41,003 bases of DNA from a virus (IMGVR_UViG_3300045988_002471:1-41003); one strand, 5' to 3'; positions 56 to 39,172 are shown, numbered from the stretch's first letter. Translations and numbers: made by a program. Notes: generated by a model from the sequence alone, not told the origin.

Positions 56-436
56 GACTTTGTGCTGGAACTGACGACGGAGCAACTCGTAGTTGAGTAT
101 GAGAAGTTGCCGCTGTTACGCCAGCACATCGACAAGGTTGAGAAAGCGATGTCCGCCGCATTGCATTCCGGTAAGAAAGTGCCAGGGTACAAACTGGTAG
201 AAGGTCGCCCGGGTAATCGTGCGTGGAAAGATGCCGATGCGATTGAAGTGTCACACGGCGACATTCTCAAAAAAGAGGTATTGATGTCCCCTACGGAGGC
301 AGCAAAAGTTCTTTCTGCGGATGAGATGGCAGCGCTTGAGCCGTTTATTACCCGTAAGCCAGGTGCACCATGTGTCGCAACGGCAGACGACAAACGTCCT
401 GAGTGGAATCAGGTTAGTGAAGAAGATTTGGAATAA
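1..436 (+). CDS. C-terminal part of the Cas4-like exonuclease that starts at 40101 (partial in this window)
   Basis: Frame continues from 41003 through the duplicated 55 bp into track ORF 62..436; stop at 434..436. Confidence 0.6.
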   Translation, partial: CAARTKTVNSVLAEELEDDFVLELTTEQLVVEYEKLPLLRQHIDKVEKAMSAALHSGKKVPGYKLVEGRPGNRAWKDADAIEVSHGDILKKEVLMSPTEAAKVLSADEMAALEPFITRKPGAPCVATADDKRPEWNQVSEEDLE

Positions 437-9611: not shown

Positions 9612-12167
9612 TTAATTAAAACCATCGCTGAATCCGTCGGAGAAACCGCTGCCGTATGGCGCGACGCCGTCGTATTTATAGAAACCTTCATCATAGTTGT
9701 AGCCAGTAATCTTGACCGTGCGGTCGTCGCCCGGGTCGATTGAAGAAACAACTATCTTCTGTGCATTATGCCTTGCTTCGTTGCCGAATGAAAACTCAGT
9801 TTTTAGTGCGCTATTCCCTGTGTAGATTGCTTCCTCCGGCGCCGATAGCATAATCACCTCGCGGTCGTGGCTTCCTTGAATAACGGAGATACTCTGCACT
9901 GAGCCGTCGCGCTTCTTAAGAATGATGGAGTGGTCATCGCCCGCGGTAAACGTAACAGGCTGCGACAGCGTCAGCGTAAGCCCATTAACGGCAACAACAT
10001 AGCCGTCTTGTGGCGCAATACGCGAGCCTTTAACCACGCTGATTACGCCGCCGGGAGTAGCGAGCGCACCTTCTTCAGTAGCTTCGAACTCTACGACAAC
10101 TTTACTTAACGCATTGCGCTGATATCGACGCCACGCAAGCCAGTACGCCTGCTGGTAGTTGCGCACGCCCTTCGATTCGTATTCCTCAGTGTTTGCGCCG
10201 AGTTCTTCCGGGATATAAATAGTTTCCCGTACGTTAGTATCTGGGTCGATGTACGAGAACGAAAGGCTATCGTAGGTAGTCGAATCGTTGAACGTGCGGG
10301 TCCATTTCTCTGTACCGGTAGTTTTGCTGCGGTGGGTGAACACCATTTCAGGCCCCGCAACCGGACGGTCGAATCGCAACATAATATCCGCACCTTTACG
10401 GTACGCAGTACAGAAAACGGCTTCCGCTATGGTCTGAACAATGTCCTGCATCGTGGTGTCGTAGTCGTCGAACGTGTAGCAGAATTGTCCGGCTAATTCG
10501 CTGCCAAAATAGGACTCAATTTCTTCCTGCACAGCGAGTAACTTATCCATATTTGCCGTTGTCAGTTCCAGATTACCCACCGCCGGGTCTCGAGCCAGTC
10601 TGATTAGAGATTGCACGGCCTGAGTATTTGGGGTCATTACAGTATCGAACGTCCCATTGCCGAGGTATTTGTAGCACATCTCGGTCGCAATCATGCGCAG
10701 TTCCGGGTTGTCTATACTCGCCGCCCGCGGGGTCTGTTTACGGGCGCAATGTACGGTAGTTCGGTTGCCGTAGTGCGGTGTGGGGTCCAGAGACTGACCG
10801 TACAGGTTGATGAAGGTTATCTCGTCACTTACCGTGCCGTTGTAGTCTTTATCGAAATTCGTTATACGGCGCATGCGGGCGCGGAAACGCGATGCGGTTG
10901 GCAACTGCCCATAAATGGACGTGCCGACGTAATCCGTGCTATTACCAGTAATCGTAGCCTGTACCGTGTAAATATCGCTCAACGGGTTGCGTTGAGAATC
11001 AATCATCTGGTACTGGAGTTCTACGGTTACGCTGGTGCGGTTATAGCCGCCGTCGTATTTGTAGAGGCCGTTCTGCCCGGCAACGTTAGCAAGTACCCGG
11101 TCAACCTCTCCGCGCACCATGTAATACCAGTCCGTAAGAGATACGTCATAGGTGTTGCTTGGGCCTATAAACGTATCCGAACGCTCTGTAAGTGCGTAAG
11201 TCTCCCCGTTATTAAGGTTACCCCAGTTACCTATATCCCCGACGTACAACCGAACCTCAAAGTCGTCGACGTATAAAACTTCAAACGAGCCGTTTAGGTT
11301 AGTGACGTCCTTAACGTCGAAATTGCTCAACACTGCGACATCACCAACACTAAGAAACTCAGAAAAAGCAGAGTCACCCGACGGGTCATATAGGTAGCCG
11401 GTGGTCGAAATACGTTTGGCGGTTCCACCGGAGCTTGGGTTAGCTCCAATGTCGTTTGGCGCTTTCAGTACAATACCGTCAACGTCGTCGTTAGAGTACG
11501 TCACATAGAGTTTCTGGTCGATGACGTCGCCGATTTGTAGTTGCGGCGATGTGGTGTTGTTCGGTGACGTATACGGCGCGTATACGGCAACAGAGGAACC
11601 TGTGATGTCGCTTATCAGGGTGTCACCTTCCGTGACGCCATCCGCCTCAATATGCAGATGTCCGCGCCCGGCGTCGTAGTACGAATACTCCAGCAAAGCA
11701 CCAGTGGAGTTGAACGCCTTATACGTCTGCATCATGTCGTTAGGGATTGTCTGCACAGTCCCGCAGATGTCATAAGAGCGCTCGTAAGGGCGCGGCTTGT
11801 TTGAGCGGTCGGTAAGGCTGTTATTTGGCGATGTTGTCTGGTTATTAGTCGCCGTGTAGTTGGCGTTTGCAGACATGTTCAGGCCGAGCAACTTAGCGAT
11901 TGGCTTAAGGATAAAACCAAACACCTTACTAACGGCACCAAGCGCCCCGCTACCAGCGCCCTCAATAATGTGGTATACCGCGTCTTCATCTTTAAGCGCG
12001 TCGAAGTCGTCGGTGACATCAGTATCGTCACCAATCTCACCGAGGTAGACGCGCACCGGCACACCGTCCGGGATACGGTTAACGACAAACTCCATCGGCA
12101 TCCCGACGTGTTTTGTACGGTCGAAAGCGCCATCAGCGTTTCGCGTGTAGTGCAGGATTATCGCCAA
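9612..12167 (-). CDS. Large distal tail protein (tail tip / host-specificity J-like)
   Basis: 851 aa, between minor tail genes and tailspike. Confidence 0.5.
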   Translation of the reverse strand: MAIILHYTRNADGAFDRTKHVGMPMEFVVNRIPDGVPVRVYLGEIGDDTDVTDDFDALKDEDAVYHIIEGAGSGALGAVSKVFGFILKPIAKLLGLNMSANANYTATNNQTTSPNNSLTDRSNKPRPYERSYDICGTVQTIPNDMMQTYKAFNSTGALLEYSYYDAGRGHLHIEADGVTEGDTLISDITGSSVAVYAPYTSPNNTTSPQLQIGDVIDQKLYVTYSNDDVDGIVLKAPNDIGANPSSGGTAKRISTTGYLYDPSGDSAFSEFLSVGDVAVLSNFDVKDVTNLNGSFEVLYVDDFEVRLYVGDIGNWGNLNNGETYALTERSDTFIGPSNTYDVSLTDWYYMVRGEVDRVLANVAGQNGLYKYDGGYNRTSVTVELQYQMIDSQRNPLSDIYTVQATITGNSTDYVGTSIYGQLPTASRFRARMRRITNFDKDYNGTVSDEITFINLYGQSLDPTPHYGNRTTVHCARKQTPRAASIDNPELRMIATEMCYKYLGNGTFDTVMTPNTQAVQSLIRLARDPAVGNLELTTANMDKLLAVQEEIESYFGSELAGQFCYTFDDYDTTMQDIVQTIAEAVFCTAYRKGADIMLRFDRPVAGPEMVFTHRSKTTGTEKWTRTFNDSTTYDSLSFSYIDPDTNVRETIYIPEELGANTEEYESKGVRNYQQAYWLAWRRYQRNALSKVVVEFEATEEGALATPGGVISVVKGSRIAPQDGYVVAVNGLTLTLSQPVTFTAGDDHSIILKKRDGSVQSISVIQGSHDREVIMLSAPEEAIYTGNSALKTEFSFGNEARHNAQKIVVSSIDPGDDRTVKITGYNYDEGFYKYDGVAPYGSGFSDGFSDGFN

Positions 12168-22127: not shown

Positions 22128-22640
22128 TTAACCCCGGTACACGTTAAACGAGAAGCCATTGTTAAGACCGCCGCACAGTAACGGGCGTAATGCGTCGTCA
22201 GCAGCGGTAATCGCGGTTGTAGCTCCACTGCTGCCGTTGTTGAAGTAGGTTACAGTCACCGCACCCTCGACACGCTCAGTCTGCACGGAACGACCGTCTG
22301 AGTTGGCCCGCACCTCAGTACCCGCACCATATGTAGCGGCAGCGATTACCTGCGCAAGAATCACCTGCTTCGGAATGGTATTGTTAGCTACCGAGAAGCC
22401 ATTCAACGTTACCCCAGTGCGGGGGTACGCCAGCGACTGTTCAGCGGATACACGGCTACCGCACATCTGAGGTTCTGCAAGCCCAACATAAGTAGCACCG
22501 TTGCGCAGGGCCACCTCTGCGGCGGTATCGTCTGCTGGTAACCCAAGACCGTAATTAGCCGCTAACGCGCGGGCGTCGGCCAGACTAACGTAACTGTCGG
22601 CATCAGGTACTATCGACCCATCTTCCACGATTAGCGGCAT
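22128..22640 (-). CDS. Virion structural protein (hypothetical, 170 aa)
   Basis: Track ORF within the structural block. Confidence 0.45.
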   Translation of the reverse strand: MPLIVEDGSIVPDADSYVSLADARALAANYGLGLPADDTAAEVALRNGATYVGLAEPQMCGSRVSAEQSLAYPRTGVTLNGFSVANNTIPKQVILAQVIAAATYGAGTEVRANSDGRSVQTERVEGAVTVTYFNNGSSGATTAITAADDALRPLLCGGLNNGFSFNVYRG

Positions 22641-22868: not shown

Positions 22869-23837
22869 TCACTTGTCCGCGTCGGCGATTGCCAGAGTAC
22901 CGAGGGTGTGTTTGTTCTCGGCAACAGCTTTGCCCCAGTTGGCCTCGGTGAACAGTTCTTCGTCCAGCGGAGATTTACCGCCGTTGGTGACATCCCAGCT
23001 ATAGCCTTTCAGTTTCAGGCCGAAGCTGTAATCCGCCTGCCAGGTGGTCTGGATGCGGGTGTTACCGTTGCTGGTATCAATGTTGCTGATAATATCAGAA
23101 GCATTATCAACGATGATGCCGTTGGCAACTACGGACAGGACCTTAGTCTTGTTCGGAGTACCGGCCTCGTACAGCGCAGGAATGTCAGAGATTACGTAAC
23201 GCTTGCCGAGAACATCGACAACCATAACGTTACCAGCAACGAACAGCTGGTTTGCGTTAGTCAGCGCTTTATCTACCAGCGTGTGGTAAGCAGCACCGGT
23301 CATGATGTCGGTAATCAGCAGCTGAGACTGGTCGCCGAATTTAGCGTGGCTGTTGTTCAGCACGTTCAGGGACAGACCCACGGTTGTAGATACATCGTTA
23401 ACCAGCGCGGCCTGACCAGATACCGCCGCAACAGCTGCACCAACAGCGGTGTTGAGCTGGTCTGCTAACAGTGCATCGGAGAAGCCTTCGGAAATAGCAC
23501 GAATCGCGCTTGCTGGGTCTTCGTTAAGCCAGGTCATTTGCGCAGGCTCGAACAGTACCGGTCCGAAGCCGCCAGCGACTTTAACGCCCACATGCTCGCC
23601 CTGAGTCAGCGCGGTAGCTGCCTGAGACTCGATAGTGGCGTAACGGTCAACGCGGCGTTTAGCGGAGGCAATCTGGTTAAAGAAAGACTCACGGGAGAAG
23701 TCACCGCGCCATGAAGCGGTAGACAGTACAATTGCGCCGCCGGAGGCTGCGTTAAACTGGTCAGTTTTCTGACCAAGCAGTTCGATAGTGGTACCGACGA
23801 TATCGTCGTTATAAACCTTCATATCTGACAGAGACAT
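22869..23837 (-). CDS. Major capsid protein
   Basis: 322 aa; follows scaffold; terminator downstream. Confidence 0.75.
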   Translation of the reverse strand: MSLSDMKVYNDDIVGTTIELLGQKTDQFNAASGGAIVLSTASWRGDFSRESFFNQIASAKRRVDRYATIESQAATALTQGEHVGVKVAGGFGPVLFEPAQMTWLNEDPASAIRAISEGFSDALLADQLNTAVGAAVAAVSGQAALVNDVSTTVGLSLNVLNNSHAKFGDQSQLLITDIMTGAAYHTLVDKALTNANQLFVAGNVMVVDVLGKRYVISDIPALYEAGTPNKTKVLSVVANGIIVDNASDIISNIDTSNGNTRIQTTWQADYSFGLKLKGYSWDVTNGGKSPLDEELFTEANWGKAVAENKHTLGTLAIADADK

Positions 23838-23843
23838 ATTCTG

Positions 23844-24470
23844 TTATCCTCGTTTGCCGTATTTGGCGTTAAGTTTTTGCTGAATTACGTCAGTACCACC
23901 GGCCCCGCCAGTAGAATTTTTGTTACCGGAAGCCCCGCCGCCGGTTGCTGCATCTGCTTTAATCAGATGCGAAAATGCTTTGTGCTCACGCAGATACTTT
24001 TTAAATTGCTCTGCGTCGGTGGTGATGACATTACCGTCTGCACCAGTGAACTTGGTAACAACGTCATCGCCGTCGAACTCGGTCTTGACCATCATAGCGA
24101 TGATATCCGCTGCGCTCTCATCAATCAACATGCCAGACAACTGGCTGATAACTGATTTACGTTCCGCGCCGAGGATACGCTCAGCCATTTTGCTAATCTT
24201 ACCGTCTTTCTCGGCGAGTACTGGCTCATACTGACTGCGCAACGTTTTCTCGAATGCCTCAAGTTCGCCGTTCTGTTTTGCGCGTTCCTGTTCGGCTTTC
24301 AGCTTCGCATCTGCGGCTTCTTTAGCGGCAGCGGCAGCAGCTTTCTTTTCAGACAAGAGTTTCTCGTTGTTAGCTTTAAGACCTGATACCAGCGCGTCAA
24401 CTTCTTCTTTGGTAAACGTGGTCTTAGTCTCTTGTTGTTCGATAGTTTCGTCTTTCACTTCTTCGCTCAT
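23844..24470 (-). CDS. Scaffolding protein
   Basis: Acidic, Ala/Lys/Glu-rich coiled-coil upstream of capsid; start set to MSEEVK (ATG 24470) after RBS. Confidence 0.55.
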   Translation of the reverse strand: MSEEVKDETIEQQETKTTFTKEEVDALVSGLKANNEKLLSEKKAAAAAAKEAADAKLKAEQERAKQNGELEAFEKTLRSQYEPVLAEKDGKISKMAERILGAERKSVISQLSGMLIDESAADIIAMMVKTEFDGDDVVTKFTGADGNVITTDAEQFKKYLREHKAFSHLIKADAATGGGASGNKNSTGGAGGTDVIQQKLNAKYGKRG

Positions 24471-24549
24471 CAGTATGTCCCCTGGACGTTGGAATCCGGG
24501 CCTCCCGGATTTACATGTCAAGAATAAATTATTCCAACATACAAGGCAA

Positions 24550-24813
24550 CTATTCCAGAATATTCCTCACATAATCCTGCAACATGAACACTTTCAGTCT
24601 CAACTGCCGTACACATTCGGCGTTCTGAACGTCGATAGCTAAATCCTCGTCAGAGTCGCTACTTGGCGCCGCCAGTTTGCACGGCGGCTGCATCATCGTC
24701 GTATCCGGGGATGGAATTGGCGTTTGCGACGGCGCGGGACTTGAGCAGGACGCGAGCATCATCGAAAGTGCACACGCTGCGACCCGGCGTTTTAATGTAC
24801 TTAACGACTTCAC
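24550..24813 (-). CDS. o-spanin (Rz1-like outer-membrane lipoprotein), overlapped with i-spanin
   Basis: Lipobox-like MMLASC then Pro-rich periplasmic region; starts inside i-spanin in a different frame. Confidence 0.55.
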   Translation of the reverse strand: MKSLSTLKRRVAACALSMMLASCSSPAPSQTPIPSPDTTMMQPPCKLAAPSSDSDEDLAIDVQNAECVRQLRLKVFMLQDYVRNILE

Positions 24814-25045
24814 GGGTGATTACCTCTGATTTCGTCTTGCCTTCGTTATCAGCGGCGGCGGCCTTTGATTCATCCTGCTGCTGCCGTTGTGTTTTCTTCG
24901 CTAACTCAGCCTGTGCTTCCTGCTGTTGCTGCGAAACGAGATTCGCCCGGCCTTCGTTCCAGCCGCTGTGATACTGGTAGATGCCGTGGGCATAAGTCAG
25001 GATGATAAAACATGCCCCCGCTACGACAGTTGCTTTAAGATTCAT
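24659..25045 (-). CDS. i-spanin (Rz-like)
   Basis: N-terminal TM helix ATVVAGACFIILTYAHGIY then Gln/Ala-rich coiled coil. Confidence 0.6.
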   Translation of the reverse strand: MNLKATVVAGACFIILTYAHGIYQYHSGWNEGRANLVSQQQQEAQAELAKKTQRQQQDESKAAAADNEGKTKSEVITREVVKYIKTPGRSVCTFDDARVLLKSRAVANANSIPGYDDDAAAVQTGGAK

Positions 25046-25071
25046 GTTTCCCCTTTCTCGATAAGTAAAGC

Positions 25072-25096
25072 CCCGCCTTAAAGCGGGGCGCTAGTC
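25072..25096 (-). terminator. Terminator-like hairpin (GCCCCGC-N6-GCGGGGC + U-rich tail) in the leader just upstream of the spanin RBS
   Basis: 7-bp GC stem then TTTACTTAT on the minus strand. Confidence 0.45.
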
Positions 25097-25168
25097 CTTA
25101 TCATTTAAACATAGAAACGGCGTAATCTCAGTAAACCAGTTACTTTTTACACAAGCAATAGAGTATGG

Positions 25169-25263
25169 CCCTTCCGAACGCGTCAGCGTAACTACACTCA
25201 GGACTTACGTCCCGCTCCGTTACCTGCCCGCGCCGCGGTCGCTTGTTCATACTTCACAAGCTC
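25169..25263 (-). ncRNA. Candidate structured leader RNA / cis-regulatory element, copy A
   Basis: Conserved blocks shared with 35876..35971; two hairpins at matching positions with different sequences; dedicated upstream promoter. Confidence 0.4.
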
Positions 25264-25269
25264 AGGTGG

Positions 25270-25298
25270 AGCTTAGCACATTTTCAGTGAAAAGTCAA
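25270..25298 (-). promoter_or_regulatory. Promoter TTGACT-N14-TGc-TAAGCT (extended -10) for element copy A
   Basis: -35 at 25298..25293, -10 at 25275..25270; same promoter at 35978..36006. Confidence 0.45.
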
Positions 25299-25361
25299 CT
25301 ATTCGAATAGTTTATTCCAACATTTACAATTATGTGGAATAACTGGAATAATCACAGGCGC

Positions 25362-25385
25362 TAAAAAGCCCCTTTCGGGGCTTAA
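25362..25385 (-). terminator. Rho-independent terminator after the Ig-like gene
   Basis: AAGCCCC-tttc-GGGGCTT with T-run on the minus strand. Confidence 0.6.
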
Positions 25386-25387
25386 GT

Positions 25388-25849
25388 TTATTCTGGCTTC
25401 GTAGCCTTCGCAGCTTTACTCACCGCCTCAACTCCAGTGGCATCAGTAACTTTAACGAAGTATTCACCCACCGCGTTAACCGTCAGAGACAAAGCCTCTT
25501 CCGGGGCGTTTACCACTTCCTTGCCGTCTTTGTACCAGGTCAGAGTATACGGCGCTTTACCTGCCTTAACTTCGACGGTGATGGTGGCGCTACCGTCGAC
25601 CAGCTCGGTGTCTTTCGGTTGCACCGAGAAATACACGTCACCTGCATCCGCCAGATACGGAATCTCGTAAAGCATACCCGCCGCGGGCAACGCAATGCCC
25701 GTTTTATCTGCAAACGGCATATCGTCTACAGGGGTACCCAGTACACTTTCATCATCAATAAACACCACGTTCTCACCAGAGCCAGACACGCGGGCGTACT
25801 GGACTACGCGACGTGACGGTACATCAGTTACTTTGAAAAAGCCCATCAT
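25388..25849 (-). CDS. Ig-like domain structural protein (possible head decoration)
   Basis: C-terminal TITVEVKAGKAPYTLTWYKDGKEV...EYFVKVTDATG; start overlaps upstream stop. Confidence 0.5.
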   Translation of the reverse strand: MMGFFKVTDVPSRRVVQYARVSGSGENVVFIDDESVLGTPVDDMPFADKTGIALPAAGMLYEIPYLADAGDVYFSVQPKDTELVDGSATITVEVKAGKAPYTLTWYKDGKEVVNAPEEALSLTVNAVGEYFVKVTDATGVEAVSKAAKATKPE

Positions 25850-26892
25850 TAATCCCCTTTCAGATAATCAGCAACACGTTTATCGAGTTCCGCCATCTGC
25901 TTAAGCGTGAGCGGATTCCCGAAACCATCTACAGATATTACGCGAAACTCTTCCGGAGATATACCGCTGTTACGGAAAATCTTACCGCGAACAGGGCCGA
26001 GGGCCTGTTCCTGGAACCACGCCGGTTGTTGCTTCAGGAACTCGTAGTAAGTGGTGTCTGCGCTTACCTGAGTACCACCATCTGCGCCTTTAGCCGCTCG
26101 TTTTGCGCCCTTATCGAGGAAGTCGAACTCCGAGCTAATTACCGGCGCAGTGGTACTTCGGCAATTCGGATGCGCCGGCGGCATCGGCCCCTTACCGATT
26201 TCCCACGTCATCCCGTCCCGGGCCCTGCAAATCGTACTGGTACGGCTGTCAAGCGTTGACACCCACTCATATTTCTCGATGATGTCGTCGTTCTGGCGGT
26301 ACGTCTCGTTACGGGCTTCGTTGGATACGTGAGACAGCGCAGTGCGGGTTACCGTCGCGGCGTTACGCTCAGAGATGTCCGCCAGCCCACCAGCGCCAAC
26401 AACATTCTTAACAATCTGCCGTGTTGTCTGACCTTGTACAAAGCCCATCTTAACGCCGGTTACAAGACGTGCTACTTCCGTTTCACCCCAACCTGACATC
26501 AGTTTAGTGAAATCAACGGGCTTGTCGCTTAACGATAATGGCTGAAACTCAGCAGCGGCCCATACCTGTTCCGCGGTAGGTGTAACAAATTCTGCGTTAA
26601 CGTTGGCAGTCAGCGTTTTTACGTTCCACTCAGCCTCATACGCCGCCAGTTCCTTGAGGTCTTCTGTCAGCTTTGTTTGCCAGTCACCTGTAATCCCTGT
26701 CAGTGCTTCTTCAAGGTCGCGTAACAATTTATTCAGTCGCGCGGTGCTGCGACCGTCGTCGCCGAATAGCAACACCTGCCGTTTGATTTCGTCCCGCATC
26801 TCCTGAATGAACGGCGCAAGGTCTTTCACTTCGCCGGATGCGGTGCGTTGCAGCCATATCTGGTGGCTGATTAGGGATGTCAGTAAGCTCAT
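25849..26892 (-). CDS. Head morphogenesis protein (Mu F / SPP1 gp7-like, putative)
   Basis: 347 aa; located downstream of portal; RBS AGGAGG. Confidence 0.6.
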   Translation of the reverse strand: MSLLTSLISHQIWLQRTASGEVKDLAPFIQEMRDEIKRQVLLFGDDGRSTARLNKLLRDLEEALTGITGDWQTKLTEDLKELAAYEAEWNVKTLTANVNAEFVTPTAEQVWAAAEFQPLSLSDKPVDFTKLMSGWGETEVARLVTGVKMGFVQGQTTRQIVKNVVGAGGLADISERNAATVTRTALSHVSNEARNETYRQNDDIIEKYEWVSTLDSRTSTICRARDGMTWEIGKGPMPPAHPNCRSTTAPVISSEFDFLDKGAKRAAKGADGGTQVSADTTYYEFLKQQPAWFQEQALGPVRGKIFRNSGISPEEFRVISVDGFGNPLTLKQMAELDKRVADYLKGD

Positions 26893-26973: not shown

Positions 26974-27007
26974 TTGATTAAATTCTACATTCAAATGTAG
27001 AATTTAA
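26974..27007 (+). promoter_or_regulatory. Promoter TTGATT-N18-TAGAAT overlapped by a 13-bp-arm inverted repeat (26978..27007)
   Basis: TTAAATTCTACAT-tcaa-ATGTAGAATTTAA spans the spacer and -10 upstream of the KilA-N gene. Confidence 0.55.
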
Positions 27008-27034: not shown

Positions 27035-27688
27035 ATGAAACTGCAAACATTAGAGTTCCCTTATGGAGAAATCACTTTTGACCGTGAAAACTTTATTAAC
27101 GTAAACGAGCTGGTTGACCAGATGAACCGTTGGCGTTTAGACAACGGCATGGGGACAAGAGAGCTTCGCCAGGTCATGGCAACGGATGGCTTCAAGATTT
27201 TCAAGGAGGAATGCGAAAAACAACTCGGAATCGAGAATGCCATAAGGGCGACGAAAGGCCGAAACGGTCGCACCTTTGCATGTCTCCATCTGGCAGTATA
27301 TATTGCTGAGCAATACAGCGCCTATTTCCATTTCCTCGTTATCGACCGCTTTATCACACAACGGCAGGTAGAACTACGAAACATTGGCGCGGTGAGCTTT
27401 GTCGAGCTTAACGCTGCCGTTAGTCGAATGATTGAGCGCACGGAGGGAAGAATTGGCCACAGTGGACACTTCATACAGGTGGCTAAAGCGGTAAAGGAAT
27501 CCGTAGATATCCGCGACGTAACGGGTTTCGATACATGGGACTCTCAGGATGCGAAGACCAATCAGTTGCGAAGTGACATCCAGAAAGCTCTGGTGACACT
27601 TCTTGACATGGAGGCCGTTAATACATGGGGTGAACTGAAAGAGGCGATACCCCGGGTTGTGCGTAAATGTGCGGCTAATATACGTTAA
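27035..27688 (+). CDS. KilA-N domain protein
   Basis: N-terminal ...INVNELVDQ...GRNGRTFACLHLAVYIAEQYSAYFHFLVIDRF matches KilA-N/APSES pattern from memory; only plus-strand gene inside the head module. Confidence 0.6.
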   Translation: MKLQTLEFPYGEITFDRENFINVNELVDQMNRWRLDNGMGTRELRQVMATDGFKIFKEECEKQLGIENAIRATKGRNGRTFACLHLAVYIAEQYSAYFHFLVIDRFITQRQVELRNIGAVSFVELNAAVSRMIERTEGRIGHSGHFIQVAKAVKESVDIRDVTGFDTWDSQDAKTNQLRSDIQKALVTLLDMEAVNTWGELKEAIPRVVRKCAANIR

Positions 27689-31003: not shown

Positions 31004-31095
31004 ATAATCCCCTTGCATATGCGTCTGACCATCAGAGCGCACCAGACGCGCCCTACGCGTCTAAAGGGATTATATAAGGGGATTGGGCGGGATGT

Positions 31096-31121
31096 ACAGA
31101 AAAGCCCTCGGTAGAGGGCTT
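31096..31121 (-). terminator. Terminator-like hairpin (AAGCCCTC-ggta-GAGGGCTT) ending the small-ORF operon
   Basis: 8-bp stem plus T-rich tail on the minus strand. Confidence 0.45.
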
Positions 31122-35700: not shown

Positions 35701-35875
35701 AATAGTTACGTTGCCGTTGTGATTCTTTCGTTTCTTAAAAGAGTACGCAACGCAGTGGGTGGGCGTTAGCCCACCCCAGCGGAGTGAAGTACTCTCTACC
35801 TTGCTCACGGCAACTATAGAAACTTTTAATTATCAGTGACTTGGATATTTAGGCGGGATTAACAATAGACTTTGA

Positions 35876-35971
35876 CCCTTCCGAAAGCGTCAGCGGAACT
35901 ACACTCAAGTGCCTAATGGCACGCGTTGCGTTCCCTGCCGCTCCGCGGTCGCTTGCGATATCTCACAAGCT
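35876..35971 (-). ncRNA. Candidate structured leader RNA / cis-regulatory element, copy B
   Basis: Shares conserved blocks with 25169..25263; hairpin GTGCC-atta-GGCAC at 35909..35922 replaces GGAC-ttac-GTCC of copy A. Confidence 0.4.
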
Positions 35972-35977
35972 CAGTGA

Positions 35978-36006
35978 AGCTTAGCATATTTTCAAGTAAA
36001 AGTCAA
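35978..36006 (-). promoter_or_regulatory. Promoter TTGACT-N14-TGc-TAAGCT for element copy B
   Basis: -35 at 36006..36001, -10 at 35983..35978; conserved with copy A. Confidence 0.45.
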
Positions 36007-36111: not shown

Positions 36112-36282
36112 ATGACTATCAATGAAGTTGCAGAATTAATCGGCGTCACCCGCCAGACGATCAATAACTGGATTAAGAGTGGAAAGTTTCCTGATTGCAG
36201 CGTTAAAGTAATGGGGCGCCGTTTACCAGGAACATTTGACCGTAATAAAGTTGAAGCGTGGATTAAGGAGAACGTGAAATGA
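36112..36282 (+). CDS. AlpA-family HTH DNA-binding protein (Xis/AlpA-like)
   Basis: MTINEVAELIGVTRQTINNWIKSGKFPD...; start set to ATG 36112 after RBS CAGGAGAG. Confidence 0.6.
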   Translation: MTINEVAELIGVTRQTINNWIKSGKFPDCSVKVMGRRLPGTFDRNKVEAWIKENVK

Positions 36283-36626: not shown

Positions 36627-38912
36627 ATGTCCGATGTAATTTTATCCTACTCGTGGTCACGCCGCAACGCGCGGGCGGGAAAAAAGGATATAAATGTCAG
36701 AACCGCACACACGGCAACACTGGACGACCTGAAAGAGTTAATCCAGCCGCTCGATGCCGTTCGCGACGGGATTAACCCTAAGACCGCGCCCGGTTATATC
36801 ACCGCCGCGTGCGACTCAACGCACAGCACCGTAAAAGACCCGGAAACTGGAGACTTTAAGCAAGCGCGTAAAGGTTTTTTCTACCGCTGCGATGCGTCTG
36901 TAAGCAAATCGTCGCTGGCCTATCTGGATTTCGACAGCACAACACCGGAAGAGTATCAGGAAGCGGTGCGCCTGGTTAAGCGCAGCCGCTGGGCCATGTG
37001 CCTCTATACCACGGCATCACATACTGATGAGTCACCGCGCTTTCGCGTCGTAATGCCACTGGCCCGTCCGGTGGAGGGTGGTGACATCATCCGTGTTCGT
37101 CATGGGTTGCTGGAGCACTTCTTCAAAGGCATGGGTGCGGACCGCAGCGGGTTCACTCTGTCGCAGCCGATGTACCTGCCGCCGGTTGGCTCTACCGTTA
37201 TCTGGTCGCGCCGTAACGACCTGATTGACCCGGACGAATTACTGGAAGGCGTACCGGATTACGAGGTGAGCAGCGCCTCGGATTACCAGATACCGGAAGA
37301 ACTGCGCACTGCGTTTACTGATGCGTTCGAGGCACTGGCGTTTGAGTACGGTGGCGTCATGACGCCTCGTGGCCTTAAAATGCCCGCTACGCCAGAACAC
37401 GCGGAGAACTACAGCGACCCGACGCCGCGCCCGGACGACTTCCTGCTGTGTTTCCCGCGCGAGGGATATGAAGCGCCTAACGTAACAATGATTCACGACA
37501 CCGACATTACGGCGACCGAAGGCATGTCACCGAAAGAGGTGTGGAAGTACGCGTGCGATGCGACCGGGCTGCCGTTCAGTGAAGTCGCAGAGGCCATCGG
37601 TTGGGGGGCGCGTGAATCTGTCTCATGCAGCCTCGACGACCTGGAAGACGACGAGGACTCAGAGGAGGACGAGTTACCAGAACCGGTAAAGGCTGATTTC
37701 GTCGTTGAGGGGTACATGCCGTCGGATTGTATCTGGGATATTGTCGGGGAATCCGGCACGTACAAATCATTCTATACGCTGGGGATGATGTACCTGAGCG
37801 CCGCCGGGTACCGGTTTGCGGGGGCTGACACCCAACGTTGCCACCATTTCTATATTGACGGCGAGGGTGGTGCAGCTACACGAACACGTATTGATGCACT
37901 CGCGGCTAAATATGGCGAGGAAGGTAAAGATTATGTACATGTCATCGATATGGGCGAAATACTCGCTACGCATGGTGATAAAAAAATTCCAGCTCTAATC
38001 CGCAGGATGCGCGAAACCGCAGGGGATGAACCTATTGGCATGGTTGCCTTCGACACCCTTAACCAGACGCTGGCCCTGACGATTGATAAGTTCGACGAGA
38101 ATAGTTCATCAACAGCAATCGGCATGGGTAAAGTTATCGCCATTCTGAAAGAAGTACGCGATGCAACTAAAGCCGCAGTAGGCGTTGTCCACCATACGCC
38201 GAAGGGTGGAAAGAAAGCACGCGGCAGTGGGGCGCTGTATGCGGGTGTTGACGTGGAACTGACAATCGAACGTGCAACCGACCGTCAGATAAACGTATAT
38301 CACTCGAAATTCAAGCACGGGCCTCAGCAGAAGACGGTTGGCATGGTGCTGGAGTCGGTACAGTTCCGTGAAGCGCCGCCGCCTAAAGAATACCGAGCGG
38401 TTGAGTTCCTGGGTAGCACAGAGGAATACGGCACAATCGTAAACCTGGACCTGCCTGAACCACACAAGGCGCTTGTGTTGATGCCGTGGGGTTTCGAGCC
38501 GTTCAAAACTGACGAGGAGAAAGAGCGGGAAGAAGGGTTGACGAAAGAAGGTAAAGAAAATGTACGTAAAACCGTAGAGAACGCCGTCAACAGTTCGGAG
38601 GCCACGATACTCGCGGCGTTTGAACTGGCGGAAGGAACCTACAACGGCAACGAGGGCATCACGGTATCCGCAGCGAATAAGCTCGCGCAGTCTGACCCCA
38701 ACGCAAAGGCGTTTAACTCCAAAGAAGCCATAGAACGCGGGAAGATTAAGAAAATGGTTGAGGCTGGGTATCTTGTTCCGGGTACTGACGAAAACAATCA
38801 GATAATCACAGGCCGTTACAGGCTGAATACCCGGATAACGGATAACAAGATTCCGAAGACACTATACGAACCGAATGAAATGCTGGTGGTGACCGAGGAT
38901 GATTTGGAATAA
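36627..38912 (+). CDS. Replication protein: primase-like N-terminal region fused to RecA-like ATPase/helicase
   Basis: 761 aa; Walker A GESGTYKS and Walker B-like VAFDTLN in the C-terminal half; N-terminal primase assignment is inferred. Confidence 0.6.
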   Translation: MSDVILSYSWSRRNARAGKKDINVRTAHTATLDDLKELIQPLDAVRDGINPKTAPGYITAACDSTHSTVKDPETGDFKQARKGFFYRCDASVSKSSLAYLDFDSTTPEEYQEAVRLVKRSRWAMCLYTTASHTDESPRFRVVMPLARPVEGGDIIRVRHGLLEHFFKGMGADRSGFTLSQPMYLPPVGSTVIWSRRNDLIDPDELLEGVPDYEVSSASDYQIPEELRTAFTDAFEALAFEYGGVMTPRGLKMPATPEHAENYSDPTPRPDDFLLCFPREGYEAPNVTMIHDTDITATEGMSPKEVWKYACDATGLPFSEVAEAIGWGARESVSCSLDDLEDDEDSEEDELPEPVKADFVVEGYMPSDCIWDIVGESGTYKSFYTLGMMYLSAAGYRFAGADTQRCHHFYIDGEGGAATRTRIDALAAKYGEEGKDYVHVIDMGEILATHGDKKIPALIRRMRETAGDEPIGMVAFDTLNQTLALTIDKFDENSSSTAIGMGKVIAILKEVRDATKAAVGVVHHTPKGGKKARGSGALYAGVDVELTIERATDRQINVYHSKFKHGPQQKTVGMVLESVQFREAPPPKEYRAVEFLGSTEEYGTIVNLDLPEPHKALVLMPWGFEPFKTDEEKEREEGLTKEGKENVRKTVENAVNSSEATILAAFELAEGTYNGNEGITVSAANKLAQSDPNAKAFNSKEAIERGKIKKMVEAGYLVPGTDENNQIITGRYRLNTRITDNKIPKTLYEPNEMLVVTEDDLE

Positions 38913-38920
38913 GTAAAAAG

Positions 38921-38940
38921 AAAGGGGCATTAAGCCCCTT
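38921..38940 (-). terminator. Terminator-like hairpin (GGGGC-attaa-GCCCC) with T-rich tail on the minus strand, overlapping the repressor stop
   Basis: Short GC stem followed by TTTCTTTTTAC on the minus strand. Confidence 0.4.
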
Positions 38941-39145
38941 CACCGAACGCCAGCCACTTGGCGTCTACTTGTAGCACTTCCGCCAGCTTGAACAGCGTCG
39001 CCGGCCGGACGTCCTGAGTTACCCCGAGCGCAAGCTGGTTAATCGCGCCCTGGGAAACGCCAGCCAGGACCGCCAGACGGCGCTGGGAGATGCCGAGTTC
39101 TTTACGGCGTTGTTCTACGCGGATACCTAGTTCAGATGGTTGCAT
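38930..39145 (-). CDS. XRE-family HTH transcriptional regulator (Cro/CI-like)
   Basis: LGISQRRLAVLAGVSQGAINQLALG helix-turn-helix; 71 aa; divergent from operator-bearing promoter. Confidence 0.8.
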   Translation of the reverse strand: MQPSELGIRVEQRRKELGISQRRLAVLAGVSQGAINQLALGVTQDVRPATLFKLAEVLQVDAKWLAFGEGA

Positions 39146-39172
39146 GTCAATTATTCCTTAGTCAGTTGATAT

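Follow-up and report, generated by a model that had tools for sequence, protein, structure and literature searches.

Clustered GGAATA half-sites over putative late promoters of a Kagunavirus: a candidate bipartite operator and a NinH-like candidate ligand

Two clusters of the hexamer GGAATA and its complement TATTCC, here called site 1 and site 2, flank the spanin cassette in a 41,003-nucleotide stretch of viral DNA (IMGVR_UViG_3300045988_002471:1-41003; the whole stretch is referred to below as the window). These clusters are real, non-random and deeply conserved. We propose that the hexamers form a bipartite operator over late promoters, for which a dimer of a NinH-like protein would be the most likely ligand, a reading that we hold with slightly less than even confidence. 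The window is a complete or nearly complete genome of a Kagunavirus (Guernseyvirinae; a K1H-like siphovirus, coliphage); where tested, it is 94-96.5% identical to Escherichia phages L AB-2017, UTI89UKE1 and K1H, and its minus strand carries the structural and late genes.

Two hexamer clusters with a common layout

The two blocks had been pointed out in a sequence-only reading, which placed them upstream of the scaffold gene and of the promoter of a structured element, and regarded them as possible binding sites for a late activator or for the repressor family of a GAATAG operator. The first block, a single-copy 40-mer (AATTATTCCAACATACAAGGCAACTATTCCAGAATATTCC), spans 24527..24566, so that the interval assigned to it, 24521..24560, is six bases too far to the left, and the second was correctly located at 25311..25353. 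The palindrome CTATTCGAATAG was found where that reading had it, as a single copy in the window (Table 1), and the sequence TTATTCCAACAT, described as shared by the blocks, occurs exactly twice, at 24529 and 25312.

An enrichment of the motif is borne out by its clustering, which is far above chance, whereas its genome-wide count is only mildly raised (25 GGAATA observed versus 16.7 expected, with 25 being reached in 2 of 100 shuffles). Six of these 25 hexamers sit in two stretches of 36-38 nt. At the observed density, ~0.009 clusters of at least three GGAATA/TATTCC hexamers within 45 nt are expected, and two were observed (Poisson P ~4e-5); 300 first-order Markov simulations produced no such cluster, and when the two AT-rich segments were permuted locally, P was <= 1e-4. 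The word GAATAG is not enriched (17 observed versus 16.6 expected).

Both sites share one bipartite layout, in which a distal pair of hexamers 9-10 bp apart is followed, after a step of 21-23 bp, by a proximal 15-bp dyad, GGAATA-N3-TATTCN, such that the distal pair stands ~three helical turns from the dyad. Read in the gene direction, site 1 is composed of GGAATA-N4-GGAATA, 15 nt and GGAATA-ATT-TATTCT, and site 2 of TATTCC-N3-TATTCC, 17 nt and GGAATA-AAC-TATTCG, with successive hexamer centres spaced by 10, 21 and 9 bp and by 9, 23 and 9 bp, respectively. Each of the two dyads, GGAATAATTTATTCT and GGAATAAACTATTCG, is imperfect at one end, and there is no further real dyad of this type in the window. 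A dyad-like third match at 22637 (GGAATAATTTATGC) was rejected as a site, as it consists of the ribosome-binding site and ATG of the next gene, and a GGAATA at 39152 was rejected as a regulator site since it belongs to the Shine-Dalgarno region of the gene for a Cro-like protein. Matches to TTGGAATAA outside the two sites, at 428..436 and 38904..38912 on the plus strand, fall in unrelated genes, an exonuclease-like open reading frame (ORF) and a 761-amino-acid helicase, both of which end with GAT TTG GAA TAA (D-L-E-stop), probably by coincidence.

Site 1 is upstream of the scaffold gene only in part: one of its three hexamers lies outside coding sequence, but the other two are within the last five o-spanin codons and the stop. 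On the minus strand the region reads AGGAATATTCTGGAATAG|TTGCC, in which AGG AAT ATT CTG GAA TAG represents the final five codons (R N I L E) and the stop, and the proximal hexamer overlaps part of the stop TAG (24550..24552). The site coincides with a putative promoter, TTGCCT-17-TATTCT, that would drive the scaffold and capsid genes and that is invariant in every hexamer-bearing clade. In this arrangement, the GGAATA of the dyad would fall at ~-21..-16 and the -10 element would serve as a fourth half-site. A TTGACA at 24516..24521 was considered as the -35 and rejected, since it reads TTGTTA in Jerseyvirus and no -10 follows.

Among relatives, TTGCNT-17-TATTCT is retained in Kagunavirus, Jerseyvirus, Enterobacter phage phiEap-2, Cornellvirus-like contigs, Pantoea phage AH01 and the metagenomic contig L341. 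The last two lack the hexamers; they carry the variants TTGCAT-17-TATTCT (AH01) and TTGCTT-17-TATTCT (L341), both with the same leader stem-loop and ribosome-binding site downstream. In L345, also without hexamers, a different pair, TTGTTA-17-TATATT, is found at the same place, and other hexamer-less contigs likewise have different -35 and -10 elements. The leader stems are wholly different from clade to clade (AAUCCGGG/CCCGGAUU, ACACCGGG/CCCGGUGU, GCGAGC/GCUCGC and GCGGC/GCCGC), and a stem is always kept and always closes an NGG triloop, which suggests a functional 5' hairpin of the mRNA, for stability or processing. Since the core promoter and the leader hairpin persist in relatives without hexamers, the hexamers appear to be an added regulatory layer, and we infer that TTGCCT-17-TATTCT is the ancestral sigma-70 promoter of the scaffold and capsid genes, over which the hexamers were laid later.

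At site 2, the dyad sits between two back-to-back promoters, one predicted for a conserved RNA and the other a promoter-like site on the opposite strand. The -10 of the RNA promoter, which is TG-extended, matches the consensus at 3 of 6 positions. Pair A overlaps the antisense promoter in its spacer and extended -10, both of which are in fact made of the hexamer pair GGAATAACTGGAATAAT. In the window, nothing but a terminator hairpin lies in front of this antisense promoter, whereas phiEap-2 and some Kagunaviruses have a real gene there.

Table 1. Features of the two hexamer sites and of the surrounding late region (coordinates are those of the window)
Feature	Position	Strand	Remarks
Head morphogenesis gene	25849..26892	-	First in local transcription order
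Hoc-like decoration gene	25388..25849	-	3' of head morphogenesis gene
Bidirectional terminator hairpin	25366..25383	.	End of the operon of the Hoc-like gene; site 2 follows
Site 2 pair A, GGAATAACTGGAATA	25336..25350	+	Two plus-strand hexamers 9 bp apart
Antisense promoter-like site	25323..25352	+	TTTACA, 18 bp, TG-extended AATAAT
Site 2 pair B, 15-bp dyad GGAATAAACTATTCG	25304..25318	-	Centre at ~-48 from putative RNA promoter start and ~-45 from putative antisense promoter start
Palindrome CTATTCGAATAG	25299..25310	.	Right half of dyad plus GAATAG abutting the -35
Putative structured-RNA promoter	25270..25298	-	TTGACT, 17 bp, TG-extended TAAGCT; conserved
Conserved RNA, ~190 nt	25066..25263	-	Downstream of site 2; own terminator at 25070..25089
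i-spanin	24659..25045	-	o-spanin embedded
o-spanin	24550..24813	-	Embedded in i-spanin; site 1 follows
Site 1 pair A, distal GGAATA	24561..24566	-	~-52..-47 of putative scaffold promoter; within o-spanin codons
Site 1 pair A, proximal GGAATA	24551..24556	-	~-42..-37; abuts -35 (GGAATAG|TTGCCT)
Putative -35 TTGCCT of scaffold/major capsid promoter	24544..24549	-	Conserved as TTGCNT, 17 bp 5' of TATTCT
Site 1 pair B, 15-bp dyad GGAATAATTTATTCT	24521..24535	-	Right half TATTCT (24521..24526) is the putative -10
Leader stem-loop of scaffold mRNA, AAUCCGGG-AGG-CCCGGAUU	24493..24511	-	Context for the transcription start
Scaffold	23844..24470	-	208 amino acids; probable start at the ATG with Shine-Dalgarno AGGGGA
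Major capsid protein	22869..23837	-	Terminator after gene
NinH-like helix-turn-helix gene, 78 amino acids	31378..31614	-	Candidate ligand of the hexamer sites

Conservation of the sites and distribution of a NinH-like gene

Conservation was assessed in 47 loci around spanin homologues, and 43 unique sequences were aligned for site 2 and 21 for site 1. All six hexamers were found at equal positions in nearly all of these loci, including those of the Jerseyvirus type with spanins 61-65% identical to that of the window, and they are nearly invariant across Kagunavirus, Jerseyvirus, Cornellvirus-like and phiEap-2 relatives. Column identity to the window amounts to 90-100% in the hexamers versus 10-60% in neighbouring non-coding columns. 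Moreover, the five o-spanin codons beneath the hexamers show essentially no synonymous change (one variant sequence), whereas codons just upstream vary freely (GGATTATGTG versus GGAGTACATA); thus, the constraint is on the nucleotides. At the end of o-spanin (24550..24566, minus strand), one stretch of bases would both encode protein and carry regulatory half-sites.

The exact 12-mer ATGTTGGAATAA common to both sites is a Kagunavirus feature, its Jerseyvirus counterparts being TAAGTGGAATAA at site 1 and ATTCAGGAATAC at site 2, and flank preferences extend the motif to ~(T/A)GGAATAA. Likewise, CTATTCGAATAG is palindromic in Kagunavirus only and is not a conserved unit, because Jerseyvirus reads TATTCAAAAAG there.

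The hexamers have also been kept through rearrangement. In phiEap-2, site 2 contains the perfect dyad GGAATAAATTATTCC, site 1 bears an inverted pair, TGAATAAATTATTCC, versus the direct pair of Kagunavirus, and a third cluster, AGAATAACTTATTCC-N8-GGAATAACTGGAATA, lies beyond an inserted gene that is transcribed divergently. In the Cornellvirus-like contigs L317, L324 and L327, a gene is inserted between the spanin genes and site 1, and GGAATAG|TTGCCT-N7-GGAATAATTTATTCT is still retained. Since the hexamers are found in both orientations, recognition would be at the DNA level; their survival through inversion and re-spacing and on both strands is what is expected of half-sites for a DNA-binding protein, rather than of an RNA motif or of chance. 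The proposal that the blocks are binding sites is therefore supported insofar as it concerns a regulator of late promoters, indirectly, by the conservation of the hexamers, their retention through rearrangement and their fixed position relative to promoters.

Some features of these loci deserve mention in their own right. The phiEap-2 clusters (L266, 11501..11537 and 11841..11903), in inverted orientation, flank the inserted divergent gene, and each hexamer pair adjoins a terminator or a promoter; in other relatives, clusters are also found at mosaic junctions, and the clusters may mark recombination boundaries. At the AH01 equivalent of site 2 (L263/L265, 12054..12150), four copies of TTGATAG/CTATCAA form two inverted pairs, which suggests a lineage-specific swap of regulator and site at the same promoter.

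Hexamers are lacking in AH01 and in the metagenomic contigs L298, L301, L307, L321, L341 and L345. An IMG/VR scan with 14- and 16-nt patterns (TATTCCAGTTATTC and GGAATATTCTGGAATA) gave mostly unrelated chance matches and nothing beyond the family, and no similar sequence was found in 5,426 complete E. coli genomes, on which ground a host origin of the sites was rejected. Literature searches with the exact site sequences and on Kagunavirus or Jerseyvirus promoters returned nothing relevant, the one Kagunavirus RNA-seq paper retrieved containing no promoter information.

Which protein could recognize the sites was then judged from gene distribution. The recognisable DNA-binding proteins of the window are the Cro-like HTH_3 protein, an HTH_17 protein (36112..36282), a NinH-like helix-turn-helix (HTH) protein and a weak KilA-N match in the product of 27035..27688. 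Of these, the HTH_17 protein is absent from phiEap-2 (whole-genome comparison), the 27035..27688 protein is absent from Sciku and phiEap-2, and the Cro-like protein is present in every genome compared. Sciku, Jersey and phiEap-2 encode the NinH-like protein, and AH01 does not. A second check, on 80 loci around the large terminase gene, revealed the NinH-like gene in all hexamer-bearing loci that span both regions, including L317, L324 and L327 and the phiEap-2-like L323 and L326, and no NinH-like ORF was detected by hidden Markov model search (E <= 10) in the site-less AH01, L298, L301, L307, L321, L341 and L345. When 600 stop-to-stop ORFs were screened for presence in Sciku, Jersey and phiEap-2 and absence from AH01, the NinH-like and a holin-like gene were the only genuine genes returned, the other hits being overlapping shadow frames. 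The NinH-like gene is the only recognisable DNA-binding gene co-distributed with the hexamer sites. The best explanation would be an element confined to that branch of the subfamily which encodes the NinH-like protein, and this protein is the foremost candidate for its ligand.

The NinH-like protein belongs to phrog_268, a PHROG of unknown function. Its N-terminal 40 residues were modelled as a three-helix HTH (predicted local distance difference test score, 76-88), and E26, T28, K31 and Y32 of the putative recognition helix are invariant among family members (59-88% identity to the protein of the window). Its gene is the second from the end of a long early operon, just 5' of the small terminase gene, a position like that occupied by Q in lambda. 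We know of no target promoter of lambda NinH. This protein is a homodimer that bends DNA, and high-throughput SELEX gave it the palindromic motif 5'-G-N13-C-3' (PMC7166090). GGAATA-N3-TATTCC is such a G-N13-C dyad with an A/T-rich centre, and the 15-bp form is perfect in phiEap-2 (GGAATAAATTATTCC). The phage dyad thus resembles sites of lambda NinH and Fis in its length, its G and C ends and its A/T-rich centre, several sites lie on one face of the DNA as in Fis arrays, and, as in lambda, a small gene, here a putative member of the NinH family, is placed just upstream of the late genes.

Several results weigh against the operator and against this ligand. Promoters and transcription starts were predicted from sequence and conservation, and a promoter scan called neither the scaffold promoter (8 of 12 matches) nor the RNA promoter. 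The co-distribution of gene and sites may reflect one or two evolutionary events and may not be phylogenetically independent. The match to Pfam Phage_NinH (PF06322; E = 2.5e-5) scores 24.6 bits, below the gathering cut-off of 29.8, and Foldseek searches with the model gave generic HTH hits only (E > 0.5), with no significant match in PDB. In Klebsiella phage PMBT64, which encodes a homologue of 50% identity with a different recognition helix (NTMTILKF), GGAATA dyads are absent, and the search for an independent NinH-like lineage, by profile-based locus search and in 5.8 billion proteins, yielded only Guernseyvirinae and one further homologue of 51% identity. Presumably, R30, the outer-G contact in Fis and lambda NinH, corresponds to a Glu in the phage protein. 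Furthermore, the pyrimidine-purine steps that the NinH/Fis rule places at -4/-3 and +3/+4 (PMC7166090) are A-T and A-T here, and lambda NinH is described as a degenerate, nucleoid-type binder, in contrast to the invariant half-site of the phage.

Mode of action and alternative explanations

Under our proposal, the hexamers would act as half-sites over sigma-70-type promoters flanking the spanin cassette, each site combining the hexamer pair with the 15-bp dyad ~three turns away. Site 1 would cover the scaffold/capsid promoter from ~-52 to -7, with the -10 TATTCT as one half of the dyad, and site 2 would lie between the structured-RNA and antisense promoters, overlapping the antisense spacer and -10. 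A NinH-like dimer is predicted to bind dyads of the G-N13-C type, and its binding would determine how strongly or when the scaffold/capsid genes, the spanins and the RNA are transcribed. The more specific claim, that the NinH-like protein is a sequence-specific regulator of GGAATA-N3-TATTCC and that the bipartite operator co-ordinates the scaffold/capsid, spanin and small-RNA promoters, is offered tentatively, as a possibility that we consider somewhat doubtful.

As for the sign of regulation, we lean slightly towards negative control by occlusion where the sites overlap the core promoter. The site-1 dyad overlaps the scaffold -10 and the site-2 pair overlaps the antisense spacer and -10; in addition, the scaffold core promoter is no weaker than those of the hexamer-less AH01 and L341, which have the same -10, and the RNA promoter is near consensus. 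On the side of activation, one hexamer abuts the -35 and another is one turn upstream, a Cornellvirus-like hexamer lies between back-to-back -35 elements, and the candidate gene is placed like that of a late activator. Occlusion could occur at the core-overlapping sites while the upstream pair provides cooperativity and possibly a positive effect. Such a combination would resemble lambda CI at PRM, by analogy only.

The early operators of the phage have to be kept apart from these sites. Exact copies of AATAG-N4-CTATT start at 451, 4316, 16704, 34667, 34993, 35668 and 39220, and among the copies whose context was read, two (451 and 39220) overlap the -10 of TTGACA-N17-TATAGT early promoters and two others (16704 and 35668) are found between divergent genes, with no good -35 hexamer. 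The AATAG-N4-CTATT copies probably serve the Cro-like protein (38930..39145, HTH_3) as operators. The early and late elements share the pentamer GAATA, a dyad over a -10 and several copies per genome; they differ in half-site, spacing, promoter class and phyletic behaviour. None of the seven copies falls within either GGAATA site, where the dyad is GAATA-N3-TATTC with a G before GAATA. AATAG-N4-CTATT is missing from AH01 and occurs once in phiEap-2, in which the GGAATA sites persist. In addition, Cro-like proteins are 37-52% identical across the three clades with invariant hexamers (Kagunavirus, Jerseyvirus and phiEap-2), and the recognition helix differs among these and AH01, which fits lineage-specific early operators and not a hexamer that is invariant in three clades. 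The supposed kinship of the blocks with the GAATAG operator and its repressor family is therefore not supported.

A Cro-like repressor acting at secondary sites would nevertheless find GAATA there, and GAATAG abuts the -35 at both Kagunavirus sites. At site 2, however, this GAATAG is not conserved in Jerseyvirus, which adds to the differences in helix, half-site and spacing given above. The ligand could equally be a phage protein without a recognisable DNA-binding domain, of which several small, conserved and unannotated early proteins are examples, but those shared by the hexamer-bearing clades are also encoded by the hexamer-less AH01; we consider either version of a different phage ligand unlikely. 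A host transcription factor might instead hold the late promoters off until titrated or inactivated, for instance a NanR-like repressor of the GntR type. The nanA operator, which we take to be GGTATAACAGGTATA, is one base per hexamer apart from the phage pair GGAATAACTGGAATA and has the same 9-bp period. A pre-existing repressor would keep sigma-70 late promoters silent at time zero, and hexamer-bearing phages infect Escherichia, Salmonella and Enterobacter while the hexamer-less AH01 infects Pantoea, although host range is confounded with phage clade. We know of no host factor with a GGAATA consensus, nor, to our knowledge, is the consensus of Fis, Fur, RcsAB, the ARG box or the DnaA box a good fit. 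NanR requires at least two closely spaced GGTATA repeats, to which several dimers bind cooperatively, and represses by sitting on the promoter region (PMC8012715). Like its (GGTATA)3 operator in the E. coli sialoregulon (PMC8012715), the phage sites have tandem hexamers with a period of ~9 bp over a promoter (site 2, 9 bp; site 1, 10 bp), and both pairs overlap or adjoin core elements. Yet the third base is A in all copies of all relatives, GGTATA never being seen at these positions, inverted GGAATA-N3-TATTCC dyads and a second element three turns away are foreign to the NanR layout, the phage encodes no GntR-type protein, and the E. coli genomes searched hold no similar sequence. A host factor is, in our opinion, likewise unlikely.

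It is quite unlikely that no dedicated regulator is involved and that the hexamers are promoter elements for host RNA polymerase or reflect constraint by coding or module boundaries. TATTCT is the putative scaffold -10, and TGGAATAAT would be the TG-extended -10 of the plus-strand promoter, which in phiEap-2 and some Kagunaviruses is directed at a real gene; two hexamers coincide with o-spanin codons, and mosaic junctions adjoin both sites. However, the hexamers at ~-52 and -42 and the one between back-to-back -35 elements have no core promoter role, relatives keep the core promoter with unrelated sequence at the hexamer positions, and the dyad symmetry, the repeated layout (9-10, 21-23 and 9 bp) and the six-base invariance exceed the behaviour of a -10, while coding constraint leaves the invariant wobble positions unexplained. 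An RNA motif, either GGA sites for a CsrA-type protein or pairing sites in the spanin-scaffold transcript, could be imagined from the three sense-strand GGAAUA of site 1, which are 5' of the scaffold ribosome-binding site. This is very improbable: two of the three site-2 hexamers are on the other strand, the site-1 hexamers of phiEap-2 are inverted, every site-1 hexamer is 5' of the putative start of the scaffold transcript, and the nearby RNA has no complementary UAUUCC.

In kind, the GGAATA element is an ordinary operator-type control element, and other phage late regions offer further parallels. The late activators Mor/C of Mu bind dyads at ~-43.5 and Ogr of P2 binds at ~-55. The dyad at ~-45 to -48 from both site-2 promoters and the site-1 hexamer abutting the -35 are comparable, unlike the site-1 dyad overlapping the -10, and searches of Pfam and PHROGs gave no homologue of Mor/C or Ogr. 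As in the lambda PR'-6S RNA-tR' region, site 2 is associated with a strong putative promoter, an RNA of ~190 nt, an intrinsic terminator, lysis (spanin) and head genes, and candidate regulator sites at the promoter. Unlike lambda, no Q-like protein was detected, the hexamers are 5' of the -35 rather than between -35 and -10, and the phage RNA is conserved and present in two copies.

Surrounding genes, the conserved RNA and significance

The local gene order (Table 1) was read from annotated relatives and the ORF list of the window. The longest scaffold ORF begins with a TTG at 24521, within the putative promoter, and this start is annotated in the K1H RefSeq record; the ATG at 24470, preceded by AGGGGA, is more plausible. 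Inside the head module, an opposite-strand gene at 27035..27688 (plus strand) varies in content among relatives: in the window and Jersey the slot encodes a 217-amino-acid protein (PHROG "amidase" with the weak KilA-N match), and in Sciku a 173-amino-acid protein annotated as a sliding clamp. This variation suggests an exchangeable moron slot. Between this gene and the head morphogenesis gene, which diverge, a perfect 11-bp inverted repeat, AAATTCTACAT-TTGA-ATGTAGAATTT (26980..27005), and a second dyad nearby, GATATGA-TTG-TCATATC, may constitute another operator. Finally, 5' of the small terminase gene (~31045..31120, minus strand), a terminator is followed by a conserved -10-like TATATAAT and a conserved hairpin, AGACGCGUAGGGCGCGUCU. 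This arrangement, shared with Jersey, phiEap-2 and AH01, would represent a third late-region promoter and has no GGAATA sites.

The conserved RNA has a paralogous copy at ~35770..35972 (minus strand). Both copies have near-identical promoters (TTGACT-17-TG-extended TAAGCT), the one near 35983 being identical to the RNA promoter at site 2, and each is followed by a terminator and a long downstream operon. Their 5' ~100 nt share the blocks GAGCUUGUGA...CAAGCGACCGCGG...GAGUGUAGUU.CGCUGACG...CGGAAGGG. Variants of the RNA are found in relatives, with AH01 and L327 carrying a different, longer type. Rfam scans of the window and of 24400..25420 gave no family at or near threshold, consensus folding of divergent copies aligned with MAFFT did not yield a usable structure, and the single-sequence fold is marginally better than those of shuffles (z = -1.7). 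This arrangement is reminiscent of lambda PR'-6S-tR' or of the two put RNAs of HK022.

The Guernseyvirinae (Kagunavirus, Jerseyvirus and allies), of which ~500 have been sequenced, count among their members many phages that infect E. coli K1 and Salmonella strains of clinical relevance, and a literature search returned nothing on the timing of their late transcription. The two sites provide a testable cis-element on the putative promoters of the most abundant virion proteins and of part of the lysis cassette, with one trans-factor named. Should the NinH-like candidate be wrong, the sites would still be a handle for the true regulator and for engineering late-gene expression. If the proposal is true, the NinH family, whose role in lambda is unknown, would gain a function and its first physiological targets, and the late-gene switch of the Guernseyvirinae would be defined.

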